64,000 bases of DNA from the NCBI GenBank assembly GCA_951406725.2, contig OX597834.1:682001-746000 (forward strand), given 5' to 3'. The notes under the pieces were generated by a model. The model saw only the letters and a program-made list of their open reading frames with translations, ran no database searches and was not told the DNA's origin. Shown here piece after piece: positions 1,759 through 34,421 of this stretch. Made by a program: the position numbers and the translations under genes. The DNA comes from Octopus vulgaris (Eukaryota). How positions within the stretch are numbered: the first letter of the stretch is position 1; each line of letters opens with the position of its first letter.

Positions 1759-1809
<51 letters not shown>

Positions 1810-1810
<1 letters not shown>

Positions 1811-2309
1811 TAATTGTTATCGCCATATTAATATGGCATTCTTATAGATATAAGAATGCCATATTAATATGGCGATAACAATTAATTTCCAGTAAACGCT
1901 GCCGTAATCTCTTTTATAGAGACTTAGTAATTTTAATATTTCTATTATTGAAAACAAGTGGATGTATTCCACTGAAACTAGGTAAATAGAAACCTTCGAA
2001 CAGAGACGTCAGTGGCGACACCTGCGGGGTCTGACTGCGCTACATTGACAAGGGGCAATACCCCGAAACGCGTCTGTAGCTGTCGGACTGGCAGTGTGAA
2101 GCGGCTGACCTCCCTTGTTCGAAGGTTATAATGGATACAGATCGTGTATCAATAGCTATCTTAAGGCGGTGGCCTCTTGGAGCTGACCAGCGGCAGCGAT
2201 TATTCTTATATCTATAAGAATGCCATATTAATATGGCGATAACAATTAATTTCCAGTAAACGCTGCCATAATCTCTTTTATAGAGACTTAGTAATTTTAA
2301 TATTTCTAT
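1810..2309 (+). mobile_element. Non-coding hammerhead-containing element (retrozyme/Penelope pLTR-like), 364-bp unit
   Basis: Direct repeat 1849-1945 = 2213-2309; inverted fragment ~1810-1857; HHR at 2039-2080; inserted in (AAT)n; homologue at 20675-21242. Confidence 0.85.
2039..2080 (+). ncRNA. Type I hammerhead ribozyme, U3:A8 core variant
   Basis: GCTACA-TTGACAA-GGGG caata CCCC-GAAA-CGCG-TC-TGTAGC: helix I, core, helix II, GAAA, palindromic helix III, GUC cleavage triplet. Confidence 0.9.
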
Positions 2310-7802: not shown

Positions 7803-8683
7803 CATGGTCGCAGCTCTGAGCTGAAAAAAATAAAAATATATATATATATATATATAAATACAGAATCGGACAAAAACGCAAAACTTTCAAATAGACGATA
7901 CAAAAAACGGACGGGTCATTCGAAGCCTCTAATCTTCAGTCAAGAACCGGATCATCCTCGCAATTTCGGCGAGGTAAAACTAAGCTACGGGCATTAGATT
8001 TCTTGGAAAAGGATCGAATGTATACGAAACAAGGACAGAAAAAAGGGACGATGTTACACGAATATAGATAAAAAACAAACAAAAAATAATACGAATATAA
8101 ATACAAAAAACAATAATAATAATAACAGGACAAAAACCACAGGCGTCTTTTTACTTTAGACAGTTCAACTTAACTGGCGTATTTCAAAAATAATGCCTTA
8201 CGGCATGTTGTCGATGTTGTCGTGACGCTGGTCAGCAACCGAAAGGCTATAGTTGACCGGCGGTCACGTGAGAAGAGAAGAGAGAGAAAAAAGAGGCAAA
8301 GGAATTAAAGAGAGGGAGAAGAGAGAGAAAAAGAGGGACAAAGGTATTAAGGAGGAGGGAGATGAGAGAGAAAGAAGGAATTAAGGAGGGGGGAGAAAGA
8401 GAGCGTGCCAAGGATTGGCGGGACAAAAGAAAGGCAAAGTAAGAAAGGCAGAGATATGTGAGAGAGTGGGGAAAGAGGAGACCAAAAAGAGGCGAGAAAA
8501 GAGAAAGAGAAAGACAGAGACAAGTGAAGTACAAATTAAGAAAGACAGAGAAACTGTGTGTAGAAGTCGTACAGAGTTTAGTGGAATGCTTACATACAAG
8601 GTGTACGTACGCCGCAATAATATATGATTGATTGATTCTAGTTTCAGCTCACGAGCTCTGGCCATGCTGGGGCACCGCCATAT

Positions 8684-10189
8684 ATGTATAAAAATATATA
8701 TAAAAATACAATATATATATATATAAGGGACGACTTAGATATGCTCAATCACCTACCGAATACTATAAACAAAAGCACCATACTGGTATCCTTCGATGTA
8801 GTCAACCTCTACTCCAATATCCCCCACAACCTAGGACTAGAGGCAATTCAATTCTGGCTAGAGAATCACGCCAACGAACTACCACACCGCATCAAAAACG
8901 AATTTGTGATAGAAGGGGTTAAATTCATCCTGGAAAATAACTTCTTCGCCTTCAATGACAACTTCTACCGACAAAAATCGGAGACTGCGATGGGTACACG
9001 AATGGCCCCCTCCTTTGCCAACCTAGTCATAGGATACCTAGAGATCAGTCTGTATCGTAAGGTTCTAGAAAGATATGGCAGCCCTTTCTCCATCTACATA
9101 GAAAACAACTGGAAGAGATATCTAGATGACTGTTTCATCCTTTGGCATAAAAATATAGAAAAACTCATAGAATTCCAGGAAATTTTAAACGGACTGGACG
9201 TAAACATCCAATTCACGATGGAATATAGCCAGCAACAACTCCCCTTCCTCGATATCCTCATTAAGAAAGCTAATAATATAATAGAAACAGACATATACTA
9301 TAAGCCTACAGACTCTAAGCAATATCTTCCATTCAATTCATGCCACCCCAGACACACCAGGATGAATATCCCCTTCAATCTAGCAAAAAGGATATGCACT
9401 ATAGTCTCTAACGCAAACACCAGAGACACACGACTACAAGAACTAAAAGATACCCTTATCACCAGGAACTATCCACCTTCACTTATTGACAAGTGCATTC
9501 AACGTGCCCTTCAACTTAACATCAAGGAACTGAGACATCCCAAATCAAAGAAAAACTTACAACCAAAAGCCTTACCATACATCTCCACACACAACCCTCT
9601 CAATAACGAAGCCTTCGGCACCATCCTCCACAACATACCCCTCCTAAAAAAAGACCACAGAATGAACACAATCCTCCAAACACACACGATCATAAAAAGC
9701 AAAAGACAGCCTAGATCCATGAAAAGTCTCCTAACACAAGCCCGAATTCACTCTTCAACACAGAAGCCGACAGTAAAAAAATGTGGAAGACCCAATTGTG
9801 GGATATGCGACTATCTAATTGAGGGATCAGAGTTCTCCTTCAAACAGGGACAACGGTTTACAGTGAAAAGCAACTTCACATGTGCTTCGGAGAACCTAAT
9901 ATACTCCCTAACCTGCTCCGGGTGTCAAGAGCAGTACATAGGCCAAACAAAAAATGGTTTGCGTAAACGAATGGCCCTGCACAGATCCCAGATAAAAATT
10001 CCCCAAAACAGAAAAATAGCTTTTAGCCAACACATAGATACTTGCGCCAACAAAAAAACACCAAACTTCAGGATTTTCCCCCTCTACCAATTTAGGGACG
10101 ATACAACCTCGAGACAACGAATAATTAAAGAAAATCTCTTTATTACAAAATACAAGCCACTTCTTAACGGGTCTACGACAAACAATTAA
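8684..10189 (+). CDS. Penelope-like element reverse transcriptase + GIY-YIG endonuclease (5'-truncated; real homology starts ~8723), probably Neptune-type
   Basis: SFDVVNLYSNIP, TAMGTRMAPSFANL, WKRYLDDCF, YKPTDSKQYL..SCHP, Cys linker CGRPNCGIC, NLIYSLTCSGCQEQYIGQT..LRKRMALH..KENLFI..KPLLN. Confidence 0.95.
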   Translation: MYKNIYKNTIYIYIRDDLDMLNHLPNTINKSTILVSFDVVNLYSNIPHNLGLEAIQFWLENHANELPHRIKNEFVIEGVKFILENNFFAFNDNFYRQKSETAMGTRMAPSFANLVIGYLEISLYRKVLERYGSPFSIYIENNWKRYLDDCFILWHKNIEKLIEFQEILNGLDVNIQFTMEYSQQQLPFLDILIKKANNIIETDIYYKPTDSKQYLPFNSCHPRHTRMNIPFNLAKRICTIVSNANTRDTRLQELKDTLITRNYPPSLIDKCIQRALQLNIKELRHPKSKKNLQPKALPYISTHNPLNNEAFGTILHNIPLLKKDHRMNTILQTHTIIKSKRQPRSMKSLLTQARIHSSTQKPTVKKCGRPNCGICDYLIEGSEFSFKQGQRFTVKSNFTCASENLIYSLTCSGCQEQYIGQTKNGLRKRMALHRSQIKIPQNRKIAFSQHIDTCANKKTPNFRIFPLYQFRDDTTSRQRIIKENLFITKYKPLLNGSTTNN

Positions 10190-10289
10190 TATACCTCAAC
10201 TTTAGAATAAAAGAAATATATACACACACAAATATTACACTCCATAGAATCCATTACTAATCAGCCCCATCACAGCTATACTTTCACCC

Positions 10290-10490
10290 ATTCATATTCT
10301 CCCTTCTCTGTTTTTTTCTTCTTCTTCTTCTTCCTCTTCTTCTTCATCATCATCATTATCATCATCATCGTCGTCATCATCATCACCACCATCATCACCA
10401 TCATCTTCTCCTTCTCCTTCTTCTTCTTCTTCTTCTTCATCATCATCATCATCAACATCGTCATCTTCTTCTTCTTCTTCTACTTCTCCA
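10290..10490. repeat. (TTC)n/(TCA)n compound microsatellite
   Basis: Direct reading. Confidence 0.9.
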
Positions 10491-10825
10491 CCTTCCACCC
10501 CTTAACCTTGTCACTAATGTCTTTCAGTATAACGCCTACGCAAATTCCATAAACAATTCCTGAATTGAACTGCGACTACTGTCAGCCACTGACCATTCAA
10601 AATACGACCATCAAGGCATTCCCAGATTTCCCCACCCCCTCTCCACATCAGCTTCCTTATTCTTCACCTACCCTACCAAGAACTCAAAACGACCTCGAAC
10701 ACACAAGTGCAAACAAGGGAGTCAGAGAAAGGCAGAATGCTACTTATATCTGAACACTACTATAGAAATATTCTTTTAAAAAAACTTTTCTTCTAATTTT
10801 TCTAAATTTAATTATTTAATCGTTA

Positions 10826-10863
10826 CAGTTGAAAAGGTCTCAAAATGACCGAAACCGGTACTG
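10826..10863 (+). ncRNA. Minimal type I hammerhead ribozyme (U3:A8) in putative Penelope pseudo-LTR
   Basis: CAG-TTGAAAA-GGTC tcaaaat GACC-GAAA-CCGG-TA-CTG; helix I extends aatcgtta/aaagatt; ~640 nt downstream of the Penelope stop, same strand. Confidence 0.85.
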
Positions 10864-10993
10864 AAAGATTCACTATAAAATTATCTTAGCATTTTCTATT
10901 TTTGACTTGTTTTTTCATATATATATATATATGCACCTACACCTTGTTCACTTATATGTATGTAAACATTCCACCAAACTCTGTACGACTTCT

Positions 10994-11045: not shown

Positions 11046-12915
11046 CCTTAAATCCTTAAAAATATTTCAGCCCGAAGGCTGCGGCCATGCTGGGGCACCA
11101 CCGCTGAATGAGCTACACCAATATGTGAATCCACCTCTGATACGTGGTACTTGGTCAACAAGGGAGTTCGATGCCGCTGTCCGCATCTGTGTCTCCTGAC
11201 GTGAGGTAGGTTCATCTGGGCCCCCTGACAAGAAGAGATCCAGTTTAGTTTTAAAGAAACCCACATCCACACCATGCAAGTCTCTCAGGAATTTAGTGAG
11301 CATGTTAAAGAGCTGTTGTCCTCTGAAACCCAAGCTGTTGCAGTATCTGGTCCTGTATTTTGATGGTGATGTTGGAATCTTTGGCACCATGCAGTGGCGC
11401 CCCGTTCTGCGGTTGGGGTAACTTTGAATGCCAAAGTTTGGGACAAGACCCTCCAGGATTTTCCAGATGTATATCACCGCATATCTCTCCCGCCTTCGCT
11501 CTAGGGAGAAGAGTTTTAATGCTTTCAGTCTTCCCTAGTAGCTGATATGTTGCATTGAGACGATCTTCTTTGTGTAGCTTCTTTGAATTGCTTCGAGTTC
11601 TGCTGTTAGTTTTATATTGTGTGGTGACCATAGTTGGGAGCAGTAGTCCAAGTGGCTGAGGACGAAAGTTTTCCACAGGACCATCAGTGTCTCTTTCTCT
11701 CTTGTTCTGAAAGTTCGGAGAATCCATCCAGCTAGCCGTCTGCATTTTATCACCAAATTTGTAATATGCACTTGGAAAGATGCATCATTGCTCATGTCAA
11801 TTCCCAGGTCACGCACTGATTTTGACTCAGAGATTGCAATTCTTCCCGGGCCAGTGTATCCAGTCTGCATGTCGTTTACCTTTGTGTGCCGGAAACGCAG
11901 GGCCTGGAACATACCTGCATTAAACTGCATGTTGTTGTCCTCAGCCCACCTGTATATTGTATCCAACTCCTGTTGCAGAAGTGCAATATTTCCAGGGTTT
12001 TGTATTGCGTGGGAGACTTTTGTGTTATCTGCATAGCTAGCAAGGGTGGCCATCTTAGCAACTGAGGACATGTCTGAAAGGGCCACTATGAACAGCAGTG
12101 GTCCCAAGACAGTACCCTGTGGATCACCACTTGTTATTTGTGTTTCCTTGGAGGTGGCTCCATTGGTCACAACTGCCTGCCTTCTATCTTTTAGGAAGTT
12201 GTGCAGCCACTCTCCAAGTTTTCCGCCTATACCGAGACCACGCAGTTTGTGACAAATCATACCGTGGTCGACTTTATCAAAGGCTTTTGCAAAGTCGAGA
12301 TATATCACATCCACATTTGAGCCATTTAATAGCTGTTTTAACACCCAGTCATAGTGTTGCAGGAGCTGTGTTAGGCAGCTTCTACCGGGTCGAAATCCAT
12401 GCTGGGTGTCAGACAGCAAGTCATTGTCTTCAAAGAATATGATTAGTTTCTTGCGGACTATTCGTTCCATGACTTTGCTGATGTGTGAGGTCAGAGAGGT
12501 AGGCCTATAATTTTTAGCATCTGCTCTGCTTCCTCCCTTATGGATAGGGCATATTACCCCCTCTTTCAATTTGACTGGGAGCTTACCACTTGCAAGAAAG
12601 CTCTGAAAAAGAAGCTGTAGCGGTTTTGCAAGGGCTCGTTTGCACGATTTGAGAAGGATCGCTGGAAATCCATCAGGTCCAGCAGCTGAGTTTGTGTCAA
12701 TCACATCTATGGCGAGTATGATATCATCATCTTCAATGTTGATGTACTCAATTTTTGCCTCTTTGGCCGCAGGAAAAGTGGCAAAGAATTCTTCTGGGTT
12801 GTTTACTTGCCTGTGTCCTAGAGGTGTAGTGAACACACTTTGGAGTTGTTCGTTCAGTATTTCACTTATCCTCGTGGGATTTCCTGTGAGGGAGTCTTCT
12901 TTTTGGAAGAGAGGT

Positions 12916-12917
<2 letters not shown>
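11041..12917 (-). pseudogene. 5'-truncated CR1-group LINE (RT and C-terminus), disabled
   Basis: [50 protein letters not shown] instead of YADD; in-frame TAG at 11535-11537 joins the 475-aa and 136-aa ORFs; structured 3' tail at 11063-11103. Confidence 0.95.
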
Positions 12918-12963
<46 letters not shown>

Positions 12964-13281: not shown

Positions 13282-16200
13282 TCAGGATTTGGGCACCAAG
13301 GCCCATTCGAGCAGAGAGTTATTGTTTGCGGAGACATATCCGGGTGTGGATGGTTTGTCCGGTACTGTTTGAAGGAATTTGTCCAAAGACTTCTTGAATT
13401 TTGTGTGGTCAGTTTCTTTTTTGACGTGTCCTGGTGTAATGTTGAAGAGAGCGGGTCCAATTGAGGTGAAATAGTTGTACCGTATTGTCGTTATGTGATG
13501 CGATTTAGATTTTTGTTGTGGACGGATGGCACGTGGTCCAAGCCTTGGATGCATTTTGAAGGTGATGCCAACATCATTCGGACAGTGCTGATGGAATATT
13601 TTCCACATCATACAGATAATGTAGCGTTCACGGCGTCGTTGGAGTGAATACAATTTCAGCTTCTCTAGTCTACCCCAGTAGTCAAGGTCTGACATGCCAT
13701 CTATCTTTTTTGTGATTGACCTTTGGGGAGCTTCAATTCTCATAATATTTTGTTTTGTGTAGGGAGACCACAGTGGACAGCAGTATTCAAGGTGGGGTCG
13801 GGCAAAAGTGGAGAAGAGAAGGATAATAGCGTGGGAATCTCTCGACTGGAAGGTTCTGAGAATCCAGGAACACATTCTGCGGGCCATGTCAACTTTGCTG
13901 CTTATATGTGTAGCCCAGCTTATGTTGTTGTCCACTGTTACTCCCAGATCTCTGATGTTGTTGGATGCCATGAGAATTTCTCCAGAAGGAAGAGAGTATG
14001 GGAGTTTCAGAGCGTCCTCCCTTCCAAAGTGGATCAGTTCGAATTTGTCTTCATTTAGCAACATGTTATTCTTTTCCGCCCATTGGACAACAGCTAGTAG
14101 GTCTGACTGAAGGTTTATTCGGTCATCCACGCTATTGATGACCTTCTGGAGCTTGGAATCATCAGCGAAGGTTCTGATGTTGCTGTGTTTGATGGTGTCA
14201 GTAATATCATTTATGTAGATGATGAAGAGAAGTGGGCCCAACACAGTGCCTTGTGGGACACCACTGCTGACTTTGGCTGGGCTGGATTTGACTCCTTCGA
14301 CTACAACATGTTGGGTTCTGTTAGAGAGGAAGCACTTGATCCATTGCAGCAGCTTTCCAGTGACACCAATATTGGACAGCTTTCTCAGAAGGATCTTATG
14401 ATCAACCCTGTCAAAGGCCTTGCTGAAATCAAGGTAGATGACATCAGTGTTGGAACCCTCTCCCAAGGCTCTCAAAATGTCATCAAAATGATGCAGTAGC
14501 TGCGTCAGGCAATCTCTCCCATTACGGAATCCATGCTGGTTGGGGTTCAGCATATTATGACTCTCAAGGAAGTGAGTCATACGCGATCTCAGCACCCTCT
14601 CAAATACCTTGATGATATGAGAGGTGAGTGAGATTGGACGGTAATTCACGGCAAGCGATTTGTTTCCTTTTTTGAAAACTGGGACAACAGACTGGGATAG
14701 AAGGTCTTCTGGTATATATCCAGCATCCAATGAGTTCCGCCACAGATTGGCTAGAGGGGGTGCAAGTTGGTTTTGACACATCTTCAAGACACAAGCAGGG
14801 AACCTATCGGGACCTACTGCTGAATTATGCTTCATTTCCTTTATTGCTGCTAAGACATCAGGAGCGCCAAATGTTATGTCCGATAAAGTGTATTGGGGAG
14901 TAACATCACTGATACAGCCCAGATCAGTCATATCAGGATTGCTGAAAACAGAGCAATATTGTTTCTGCAATATTTCTCCCATGGTTTTGGCATTGTCTTG
15001 AAGAATACCATTTTCATCAATCAGAGGGCCAACAGTAGAACCAGTGACTCTGTGTTTTTTTGCAAATGAAAAGAACACTTTGGGATTGAGTTTGATCTTC
15101 TCAATGGCCCAGGCCTCTTCAGCTCTTCGCTGACTATTGATGATAGACATCATGTTGTTTTGGAGTTTATGTTTTTTAATCTCTAGCGACGAGATGGCAG
15201 TCAGGTTGGTGTGTTGCTGTTGACAGTATTTCAGCATGTTGATCTTTTTGTTGATTCTTTTAATTTTCCTTATGAGAGATTTTCTATTTCTAGGGATTCG
15301 ACACTTAGATTTGTTTGCAGATCTTAATGGGGTGTGTCTTGCACATATGTTCGTGATGGTGTCTACAAGTGACTGCCAGGACTTTTTGATGTTAGTGGGT
15401 GTGTATGTGTGCGTGAAGGACCAATCGACTTGTGCAAGATCATTATTGATCGCTTCCCAGTTTGCATTGTGGAAATCCATAGTGTCAAATGGATGAACAG
15501 GAGGGATGACATTTGTTTTGCATTTTGGCCAGTGAAATCTCAGATCACAGAGAACCATGTCATGGTCGGAGAGTAGGGTTTTCTCCACTGCAATATTGTG
15601 GATAGTATCAGTGTGATTGCTGAAAATTAAGTCTAAGACGTTTTTGTGACATCTCGTTGGTTCGAGTACCAGTTGGGACAAGAAGAAGTCATCCATGAAG
15701 TCAAGAAGCGATTCCACTGCCTCCCTGTCAGGGGTTGAGAGAGAAGAACCTGGCGGCAGACTGTTTGTAGACCAGTCAACCCCAGGAAGGTTGAAATCTC
15801 CCATCATTAAAATGTTGTCAGGTTGACACTGCTGAATGAAACACTTTATGCTGTTGAGGCATTCCTTGAAGCATGGTAGGGGCGTTTGGGGTGGTCTGTA
15901 GAGCCCAACTACTGTTAAGTTGTTGGTTTGACTGAATACAGCGACTGCTTCGCAGTATCCATTCGAAAATATGTTCATGGCTTCTGTTGAGAATGAATCA
16001 TGGACATAAATGGCAGTCCCACCCTTTCTTCTGCCAACACGATCAGCACGAATGGTTTTGAAATTTTTAACTTTCACCTCGGCTTCCAAGTGGAGGTCAC
16101 TAAGATGGGTTTCAGTGAGGACGAAGAAAGGGATGTGGTTTGGATGGGCCTCGACCCAGTCCTCCAGGAATCTTATCTTCCATTTTTGTGTATTGGTGGA

Positions 16201-16404
16201 AGGGCTGATGCCTTGGGCATTAAGCAGAAATGTTGAGGCGAGAGTGGATGGTTTTAATTGTTTTGGTGATTTGTTAATTTGATTGCTTTTTAATGGCATG
16301 TGTAGTGGGGTAATAGTGGTGGATGGCGGTGGGTGATAGCTCGGATGTTTTTTTCCAGTTCTTTTGCTAGATTCATTATATACATCTAGATTCATTATAT
16401 ACAT
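13282..16404 (-). CDS. CR1-group LINE ORF2: AP endonuclease + reverse transcriptase, uninterrupted
   Basis: EN motifs LLNAQG, LTETHL, GGTAIY, YRPP, GDFN, LDLIF, SDH; RT motifs [39 protein letters not shown]; true start codon uncertain. Confidence 0.97.
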
Positions 16405-20463: not shown

Positions 20464-20674
20464 ATTTCTTTACTACCCACAAGGGGCTAAACACAGAGGG
20501 GACAAACAAGGACAGACAAAGGGATTACGTCGACTACATCGACCCCAGTGCGTAACTGGTACTTAATTTATCGACCCCGAAAGGATGAAAGGCAAAGTCG
20601 ACCTCGGCGGAATTTGAACTCGGAACGTAACGACAGACGAATTTCGCCCGGCGTGCTAACGTTTCTACCAGCTC
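20464..20674 (-). mobile_element. tRNA-derived SINE family A with Tx1-like tail
   Basis: Reverse complement highly similar to 25793-26023. Confidence 0.9.
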
Positions 20675-21238
20675 TATCGCCATACATATATGGTAATCTT
20701 ATAAATATAAGACTAAAGCTGTCGATGATTAGCTCCAAGAGGCCACCGCCTCAAGCTAGCTATTTGACACACAATCTGCGTCCATTATAAACTTTCGAAC
20801 AGGGGAGGTCAGCCGCTTCATCCTGCTAGTCAGACAGCTGCAGACGCGTTTCAGGGTAGTTGCCCTTTATCAATGCAGCGTAGTCAGACCCAGCAGGTGT
20901 TGCTACTGACTGTCCCTGTTCGAAGAATCTATTTACCTAGTTTCGGTGGAATACATCCACTTGTTTTCAATAATAGAAATATTAAAATTACTAAGTCTCT
21001 CTAAAAGAGATTACGGCAGCGTCACTGGAAATTAATAGTTATCGCCATACTAGTATGGCAATCTTATAAATATAAGACTAAAGCTGTCGATGATTAACTC
21101 CAAGAGGCCACCGCCTCAAGCTAGCTATTTGACACACAATCTACGTCCATTATAAACTTTCGAAAAGCGATAACTATTAATTCCCAGTAACGCTGCCGTA
21201 ATCTCCTTTAGAGGGACTTAGTAATTTTAATATTTTAT

Positions 21239-21242
<4 letters not shown>
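20675..21242 (-). mobile_element. Non-coding hammerhead-containing element, 365-bp unit (same family as 1810-2309)
   Basis: Direct repeat 20675-20798 = 21040-21163; inverted fragment ~21167-21242; HHR at 20837-20879; abuts (TA)n. Confidence 0.85.
20837..20879 (-). ncRNA. Type I hammerhead ribozyme, U3:A8 core variant
   Basis: RC: GCTGCA-TTGATAA-AGGG caacta CCCT-GAAA-CGCG-TC-TGCAGC. Confidence 0.9.
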
Positions 21243-33075: not shown

Positions 33076-34421
33076 GCATTAAATATATATATGTACATAT
33101 ATACGCGTTATATATATATATGTGTGCGTGTACGCATTATATATACAAATGTATACAAATTATATATATATATATATATATACAGATATATACACTTTGT
33201 ATATATACATATTTATATATAGATACAGACACACACACACACATATAAATTAACCCAATAAATATCTGATTCATATTTGTTCTTATGATTGTGTTGTGGT
33301 TTGTGGCGATAATAAAACTCTCTATGAATGCAGACAGACGTTCAAAGAGAGAGAGAAAGGGGGGTATAAAGAGTGACAGCGCTGGCGAAGGCGGCAGGGA
33401 AAGATAGTAGCATTTGTCAAACGTCCTTATAGAGAGAAAGTGATGGGAATGGAGGAAACAGAGAGAGAGAGAGAGAGAGACGGAGGAAGACAGGCAGATA
33501 AGAGAATGAGAGAAGACTTGTCAAAGTGTGCGCTTTTTGCCCTAGTAACCACACCTTTTAAGATAGGGATATCTAACCTAGCCCACTGACATCCTCACCT
33601 CATTTTACATGTCCCTGCAAATTTTGGAGTAAATCCGACGGGATCTAGTGCCCTTTAACCCGTTCCAATGCCAAAACCAGACAAACAAACTTTTCACATT
33701 TCAGATTTATAGATATTTGATTAGGTTTCACTGGTTAAGGAACATTACAACGCTATATTTTAAGACGAATCCATAATATGAAGTGTGGCTAGATTAAAAT
33801 CTTATTGGCTAATTATTTGGGGGGAAGAATTTAAACGTTGAAAGAATTTTATATCTGTAGGTAATTATGACATCAGATATCTTATTATGCTTTTGTTGTT
33901 AGCGCGGATTTTTTGGATCGCTTCCTCCCTACCTAAATTGCAACTTTTAGCGTATGTATTATATGGTGTGGTTTCCGTTATGATAGACCAATCGGGATTG
34001 AATTCTTTATTGCTCATTTTTAATTTATTAATGTGAGAAGCTAGAGTGGATGAATTTTTTTGCTTCGTGATTGAATTTGTATGTTCCCTACATCTAATCT
34101 TAAAATCAGTCGTATTTCTTAAGTAAATCTTTTTAGGTTCATTAAGTGTTGAAACTTCAACTTTACATATATACTAGCATTTATATATATACAACGCCGG
34201 GTCATAGTGCTAGTTTGGTATAAATTTAAATTAAAAATTTGGGGTAATAAAACATACAATGACATATTAAAAAGACGAATTAAAATTCCAGAGAAACATA
34301 CAGAAAAGATAAATATACAAATTTACAAAAATGCATAAAAATGCACCAATTAATATGAAACATATCATATATTTAAAATTGACACTCCCTCGTCAGGATG
34401 TTTTTTTACACACAACACATC

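Follow-up and report, generated by a model that had tools for sequence, protein, structure and literature searches.

A covarying U3-A8 hammerhead motif in a likely Penelope-copied retrozyme of Octopus vulgaris

Two copies of a repeat in a 64,000-nt stretch of Octopus vulgaris DNA (contig OX597834.1, positions 682,001 to 746,000; called the window below) differ by base changes that look compensatory, which raises the question of whether selection has maintained an RNA fold there and what kind of element carries it. We favor the reading that the repeat is a non-autonomous retrozyme with a covarying U3-A8 hammerhead, likely self-cleaving and likely copied by Penelope-like enzymes, and put the probability of this reading at about 0.75.

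Hammerhead motifs with a U3-A8 core

A motif scan of both strands identified a type I hammerhead motif, belonging to what we call subfamily B, at 20837..20879. The letters quoted for it in the preliminary description are all present in the sequence, but the motif is read on the minus strand, with helix I at 20879-20874 paired with 20842-20837, the core UUGAUAA at 20873-20867, helix II and loop 2 at 20866-20853, GAAA, a palindromic helix III and UC at 20852-20843, and a predicted cut between 20843 and 20842. A long stem on the same strand (20790..20935), consisting of the distal helix I and flanking helices, encloses it. The copy with which it had been compared, of subfamily A1, lies on the plus strand at 2039..2080, with the core UUGACAA at 2045-2051, helix II at 2052-2064, and a predicted cut after 2074. 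The scan returned a third hammerhead-shaped motif in the window, at 10823..10866 on the plus strand; this is the U3-A8 motif of the Penelope-like element described below, with the palindromic helix III ACCGGU, and its fold was not stable in isolation (z = -0.45).

Both main motifs carry UUGANAA in place of CUGANGA, by which the 3-8 pair becomes U-A; all the other core positions of a hammerhead are present, and positions 3 and 8 form a compensated U3-A8 pair. UUGANAA was found in 169/170 insertions, a figure partly fixed by the design of the search (see below). Within the core, variation was confined to position 7 and the center of loop 3, and both the CAA..A of loop 2 and the internal loop of helix I, the parts that would take part in a loop 1-loop 2 tertiary contact, were kept across groups. 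The helices are of canonical size (6 and 4 bp) with an extended helix I, and loop 2 is CAA(A)UA. Folding predicted three helices around the core with helix I open, which is the type I layout, although helix III is predicted to form only as a dimer. The 146 nt around the A1 and B motifs were more stable than shuffled sequences (z = -7.8 and -6.6, with 0/200 shuffles as stable in each case).

The Rfam hammerhead models gave no match at the gathering score in three loci, nor any match even at E<=10 on 20760-20960. The Rfam scan of the window found no hammerhead, and the matches listed (150 of 220) were to microRNA-family models, all below the cut-off and mostly over AT repeats and hairpins. The U3-A8 hammerhead is described in PMC3088659 as a natural variant that is active in vitro, and the giant squid genome paper counts 235 Rfam hammerheads, given there without detail (PMC6962438). 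The 20837..20879 motif likely acts as a self-cleaving ribozyme.

Covariation of helices I and II and of the helix III loop

To sample the repeat we searched the genome (2.8 Gb, 227 contigs) with a motif pattern, which gave 2,249 exact matches against 0 for the reversed control; a pattern for a diverged helix II variant gave 547 matches. The main tests used 197 fetched loci, 60 chosen by similarity to the two window copies and the others taken from the pattern lists, mostly from contigs 1-2. These loci hold 275 hammerhead-bearing units in 170 insertions, of which 146 are complete over the tested region, and 20 further loci added group F. The groups A1, A2, B, D, E1, and E2 show 49-88% identity between their majority letters, and group E is homologous along the whole unit.

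The preliminary description had reported an A-U to G-C change in helix I and a G-C to A-U change in helix II, with position 7 as the only difference in the core. Both helix changes hold between A1 and B as subfamilies: the helix I pair is A-U in 39/39 A1 copies and G-C in 41/45 B copies, and the helix II pair is G-C in 37/39 A1 and A-U in 41/45 B copies. In the core, position 7 is indeed the only difference. The same helix I pair is G-U in 21/27 copies of A2, and the helix II pair is G-U in 13/20 copies of D. The two compensations are real, subfamily-wide differences, with wobble intermediates that spread.

Between A1 and B only, the ten pairs of helices I and II had 2 double changes and no break (P ~0.0015 against random Watson-Crick column pairs). 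Across the six subfamily majorities we found 8 double changes, 3 wobbles, and no broken pair, whereas the null had means of 2.3 double changes and 11.8 breaks and was break-free in 0/200,000 draws. Helix I by itself, left almost free by the search patterns, showed 6 double changes, 2 wobbles, and no break (0/500,000 null draws); because the core and some of helix II were preset in these patterns, the conservation of both in A2, D, E, and F is partly built in. Pairing was kept at 97.5% over the 146 copies, compared with 28-55% when the partners were slid. An independent count took at most 7 copies from each of 7 groups, or 10 in the case of F, for a total of 51, of which 44 were distinct; in the distinct copies, 96.3% of 702 cells were paired, compared with 78.1% when shuffled and 28-48% when slid, 11/16 pairs were altered on both sides, and the distal 3-bp extension of helix I was changed on both sides in 3/3 pairs.

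A tree-aware all-pairs test of the R-scape type gave no stem pair at E<0.05 (best E=1.2, for pairs at least 4 columns apart), and independent events in it are few because the subfamilies are few; the helix I and II pairs described first had per-pair P values of 0.016 and 0.010, not significant after the all-pairs correction. Two of five whole-structure measures were no better than shuffles (47 and 479 of 500). The pair at the end of helix I is broken as G-A in 9/45 B copies, and the base of helix II is unpaired in 7/44 copies, mostly as U-U in group F. Across the whole unit, for which a fold predicted from a single sequence was used, subfamily differences kept pairing no better than private mutations (13/33 versus 57/192; P=0.31), being 7 double, 6 wobble, 20 broken, and 6 gapped, although variants shared within subfamilies, by at least 3 insertions, kept pairing in 16/23 cases versus 57/192 for private variants (P=0.0003). 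The earlier proposal that the subfamilies diverged under selection on RNA structure is supported for the hammerhead helices once the further subfamilies are counted, but not for the fold of the whole 364-nt unit, nor for a separate hairpin that had been offered as a third compensation.

This hairpin, with a GCCA stem, lies at 21044..21059 on the minus strand, near the short 3' end of the insertion, and had been set against 1858-1873. Only two nucleotides would lie between the changed bases, and folding predicts a four-base loop, UUAA or CUAG, for the two hairpins. Of 216 unit copies, 1 had the loop CUAG, which is private to copy B, compared with UUAG in 99, UUAA in 74, and UAAG in 22 on the same stem. 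In contigs of public runs, position 21053 was A, the common base, and not G in essentially all of the depth of three runs and in 174/189 of that of one run. The third compensation is a private one-off loop mutation, which illustrates the limit of two-copy comparisons: one of the three compensations claimed from them was of this kind. We also asked whether the 16-nt palindrome might be another site of kissing or dimerization and rejected this, as most copies have UUAG or UAAG and, in groups E and F, the GCCA/UGGC stem is capped by a loop that is not palindromic. CpG decay, likewise rejected as a cause of the changes, could account for CGCG to CATG and for the C-to-U change of helix II; it would produce neither CTAG nor CCGG, nor the changes in helix I.

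The strongest signal, missed in the preliminary description, came from the loop of helix III. Its center takes GC, AU, UA, and CG, i.e., all four of the self-complementary dinucleotides among the sixteen possible, and longer palindromes (CUGCAG, CCUAGG, and CUAUAG) also occur. This center scored above all 2,035,800 tree-aware null values in an alignment in which the longer loop of E1 was collapsed. Loop 3 was self-complementary in 161/170 insertions, 25 loci having been picked on CTAG, and, by a hand tally, in 77/100 among the matches listed for a pattern that left the loop free. An odd-length CCUGG loop 3 was found in 11/100 among the matches listed (E/F), and the hand tally gave 15/100 E/F loops among the matches listed that were neither perfect nor wobble palindromes. 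Since helix III takes all four self-complementary dinucleotides, a double hammerhead is indicated; modeling predicted no pairing of helix III in the monomer and a self-duplex of -8 to -9 kcal/mol. The palindromic helix III fits the double-hammerhead fold described in PMC4209133. Group F (L233-L252) has U-U at the base of helix II, and some of its members have the odd-length CCUGG loop 3.

The repeat unit, its insertions, and Penelope-like elements

The hammerhead is part of a noncoding unit of 364 nt in copy A and 365 nt in copy B, which are 87% identical over about 400 nt, and of 357-362 nt in the other subfamilies. It has no reverse transcriptase (RT) frame, and the frame list gives only a repeat-derived frame over copy A. 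Head-to-tail arrays of 2-5 units, with a hammerhead in each, were found at many loci. The circular fold of the unit was more stable than 60 shuffles each of A and B (z = -8.1 and -7.5). A noncoding unit within 150-450 nt, one type I hammerhead, head-to-tail copies at many loci, and high self-pairing are the testable features of a non-LTR retrozyme, and by these features we assign the unit to that known kind of element. For the family itself we found no description: the literature searched, with subscription papers, Repbase/Dfam, and supplements outside its scope, contained none of a cephalopod or octopus retrozyme or of a U3-A8 retrozyme. No sequencing run recorded as RNA was listed for the unit. 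It is covered by contigs of five runs guessed to be RNA and of three unlabelled ones, some of which span the unit junction, as tandem DNA would explain equally. Subfamily A2, the one with G-U in helix I, is the source of most of the long tandem arrays (L070-L073, L126, L133, L156, and L228), and A2 variants dominate the hammerhead contigs of two guessed-RNA runs.

Insertion B consists of a main piece at 20675..21166 on the minus strand, with ~1.35 copies of the 365-nt unit, terminating at a short 3' end ~10 nt past the GCCA/UGGC hairpin, and an inverted partner piece at 21167..21242 on the plus strand, terminating at a long 3' end followed by (TA)n. It adjoins SINE-like sequence (20470-20675), which we take to be of a kind present in octopus genomes. 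Insertion A has the same composition, with a main piece at 1838..2309 on the plus strand (~1.3 copies of the 364-nt unit, with the long 3' end in (AAT)n) and an inverted partner at 1808..1857 on the minus strand that terminates at the short 3' end.

Among 207 pieces from 137 loci, a few of which may be counted twice where loci overlap, 89 stop at unit positions 31-50 and 93 at 96-115, so that 182 fall in two zones, and the two 3' end sites are 62 nt apart. Most of the 3' ends are followed by (TA)n, and the 5' ends are scattered. More than one unit is present in 102/207 pieces and more than two in 13, the longest having ~5 units, so a multimeric or circular template would be needed. The 154/207 pieces that read through the cut site were not usable, since the loci had been chosen by queries at or just 5' of this site. 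Two-piece inverted insertions numbered 68, of which 11 are unclassed; 55/57 classifiable cases combine a short with a long end, and in 2 the ends are alike. Insertions A and B both follow this one-short-one-long rule, by which two-site priming by Penelope-like enzymes can be tested through counts in genomes. From the two fixed 3' ends, the variable 5' ends, the inverted piece, and the TA-repeat target, the insertions look Penelope-made. At two loci on different contigs (L026 and L160) the inversion junction is identical but the flanks differ, suggesting remobilization of a composite copy. Two copies 4.5 kb apart were considered as paired terminal repeats of a coding element and rejected; their identical flanks mark a local duplication.

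A candidate of the mobilizing class is present in the window itself, where a 5'-truncated frame at 8642..10189 on the plus strand encodes RT and GIY-YIG domains of a young Penelope-like element, although Pfam RVT_1 and GIY-YIG each scored just under the cut-off. All of the 150 scored genomic matches were 99-100% identical to it, indicating at least 150 near-identical copies. Intact tandem copies of the family occur elsewhere with frames of 446 and 784 aa and a period of ~4.4 kb, and its two 3' ends are ~33 nt apart. The element at 8642-10920 (also at L165) has RT, a CxxxxCxxC linker, by which it appears Neptune-like, and GIY-YIG; many copies keep the 784-aa frame intact, and the upstream 446-aa frame is in another phase. 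The three inverted insertions observed for this family (L107/L108, L116, and L121/L122) all combine a short end with a long one. Several RT/GIY-YIG families of the genome have the U3-A8 core and two ends; at least two further Penelope-like families (among L257-L282) have UUGAUAA hammerheads and the palindrome ACAUGU. We failed to find similarity between the unit and the window Penelope-like element (best E 0.59), or, at E<0.05, between the unit and the 3' regions of 30 of the at least 150 GIY-YIG loci except for one inverted neighboring copy. The tail of one Penelope-like family, a CUCG/CGAG hairpin followed by UUAUUAU, resembles the long end of E/F, but BLAST was not significant.

Proposed mechanism, alternatives, and known systems

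We propose that tandem copies of the unit would be transcribed and that two hammerheads would pair through their palindromic helix III loops to excise unit-length RNA, which may circularize. In the next step, AT-rich DNA would be nicked by a Penelope-like RT/endonuclease, which would begin reverse transcription of circular or multimeric RNA from two internal sites separated by 62 nt, usually one for each end of the DNA. New subfamilies would be founded only by RNAs with an intact fold, a selection that would leave compensatory changes between subfamilies; the genomic copies would afterwards decay unconstrained.

The fold might instead be selected as a handle for a Penelope-like protein or for RNA stability, the hammerhead cutting little or never. 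In the system reported in PMC11167929, hammerhead mutants were without effect on insertion in vitro and cleavage needed protein, and 8/9 Xenopus retrozyme dimers were uncleaved, with 1/9 cleaved, in the preprint 10.64898/2026.07.22.740005. The pieces studied here also show no pile-up of 5' ends at the cut site (7/207 within 17 nt, with ~10 expected if even). However, it is exactly the catalytic architecture that has been under selection, with only position 7 and the loop-3 center varying in the core and with the CAA..A of loop 2 and the loop 1 frame kept, and a self-complementary loop 3 is required mainly for the double-hammerhead fold; we consider such a handle unlikely. A source of paired changes with no RNA selection at all would be hairpin-templated correction in DNA replication or reverse transcription, a process to which the private CUAG change, which makes its hairpin a perfect palindrome, and the frequent template switches in unit insertions would be congenial. 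It is disfavored, to the point of being very improbable, by G-U states that spread subfamily-wide (21/27 in A2 and 13/20 in D), which DNA-level correction would not favor, by private mutations that mostly break pairs (135/192), and by the conservation of the unpaired core.

There is also scarcely any room for the unit being a solo terminal repeat (pLTR) left by 5' truncation of an autonomous Penelope-like element, even though the insertion signature and the U3-A8 core are common to the Penelope-like elements of this genome and retrozymes have been proposed as pLTR derivatives (10.64898/2026.07.22.740005). Copies that exceed one unit continue into further unit sequence (up to ~5 units), and no RT plus GIY-YIG frame was found 5' of the repeat, the flanks having been compared at the level of sequence similarity. 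The 5' flanks are unit sequence in 162/208 cases; the other 46 share sequence in five pairs from different loci and one from overlapping loci, and only one flank matches the window Penelope-like element, inverted and at 73%. The 3' regions of the 30 GIY-YIG loci have no similarity to the unit at E<0.05, the one inverted neighboring copy aside.

Returning to the retrozyme with a cutting hammerhead, we suggest more tentatively, with the odds somewhat against us, that its clan is old and still spreading (at least 7 subfamilies, down to ~50% identity), that it and several Penelope-like families settled on U3-A8, and that it records an obligatory double-hammerhead pairing and a one-short-one-long rule revealing a complex of two RTs on two strands with circular RNA. 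Such a U3-A8 clan would be invisible to Rfam and to CUGANGA descriptors. Whatever the fate of this suggestion, standard searches miss thousands of hammerheads in genomes like this one, and the compensatory and wobble variants of the family form a natural series for testing dimer cleavage by U3-A8 hammerheads. Elements of this class, their U3-A8 core, and their action as dimers have been published before, so that specialists would find little surprise in them.

The metazoan non-LTR retrozymes described by Cervera and de la Pena (2020, PMC7229834) are likewise noncoding units of 150-450 nt, with 350-390 nt reported in mussel and 330/350 nt in axolotl. They have in common with the octopus unit a single type I hammerhead in each unit, copies both in tandem and dispersed, high self-pairing, and a short palindromic helix III, and in one axolotl family, as in group F, the base of helix II is U-U. 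Unlike the retrozymes as described there, the octopus unit carries the U3-A8 core in all subfamilies examined, and its insertions have inverted 5' pieces and a pair of fixed Penelope-type 3' ends; for the published retrozymes, cleavage and circular RNA were demonstrated. The hammerheads of Penelope-like elements, among them the U3-A8 variant in Cercyon of Schistosoma (Cervera and de la Pena 2014, PMC4209133), show the U3-A8 covariation, a palindromic helix III, predicted dimeric action, and many compensatory changes, all as here. As presented in that paper, these motifs are minimal (a helix II of 7-8 bp and a short helix I) and lie in terminal repeats of coding elements, in contrast to the 6 and 4 bp, extended helix I, CAA(A)UA loop 2, and noncoding unit of the octopus.

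The vertebrate retrozymes of Li, Clavereau, and Pollet (2026, 10.64898/2026.07.22.740005) also occur as monomer, dimer, and multimer copies together with Penelope-like elements, but their units are homologous to pLTRs, whereas no such homology was found for the octopus unit; no mollusc was seen among the classes named there. A Penelope-like enzyme has been reported to start at two internal RNA sites and to cut both strands of AT-rich DNA, possibly as a dimer (Frangieh et al. 2024, PMC11167929), and the tail of Penelope-like elements is frequently confined to a single end (Craig et al. 2021, PMC8557442). The octopus insertions agree with these two reports in their two fixed 3' ends, AT-rich targets, inverted 5'-truncated piece, and mostly one-ended tail. 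They differ in that the tail is 62 nt, compared with 30-40 nt as given there, in that the element is noncoding, and in that the one-short-one-long rule was counted (55/57).

Other sequences of note in the window include a GIY-YIG-like fragment of another Penelope-like family at 33865-34173 on the minus strand, a repeat at 7860-8160 whose minus strand contains the motif CUGAAGA, and two LINE-type RT frames at 11067-12962 and 13282-16404 on the minus strand, one of which is 1,040 aa long with an endonuclease-like N-terminus.
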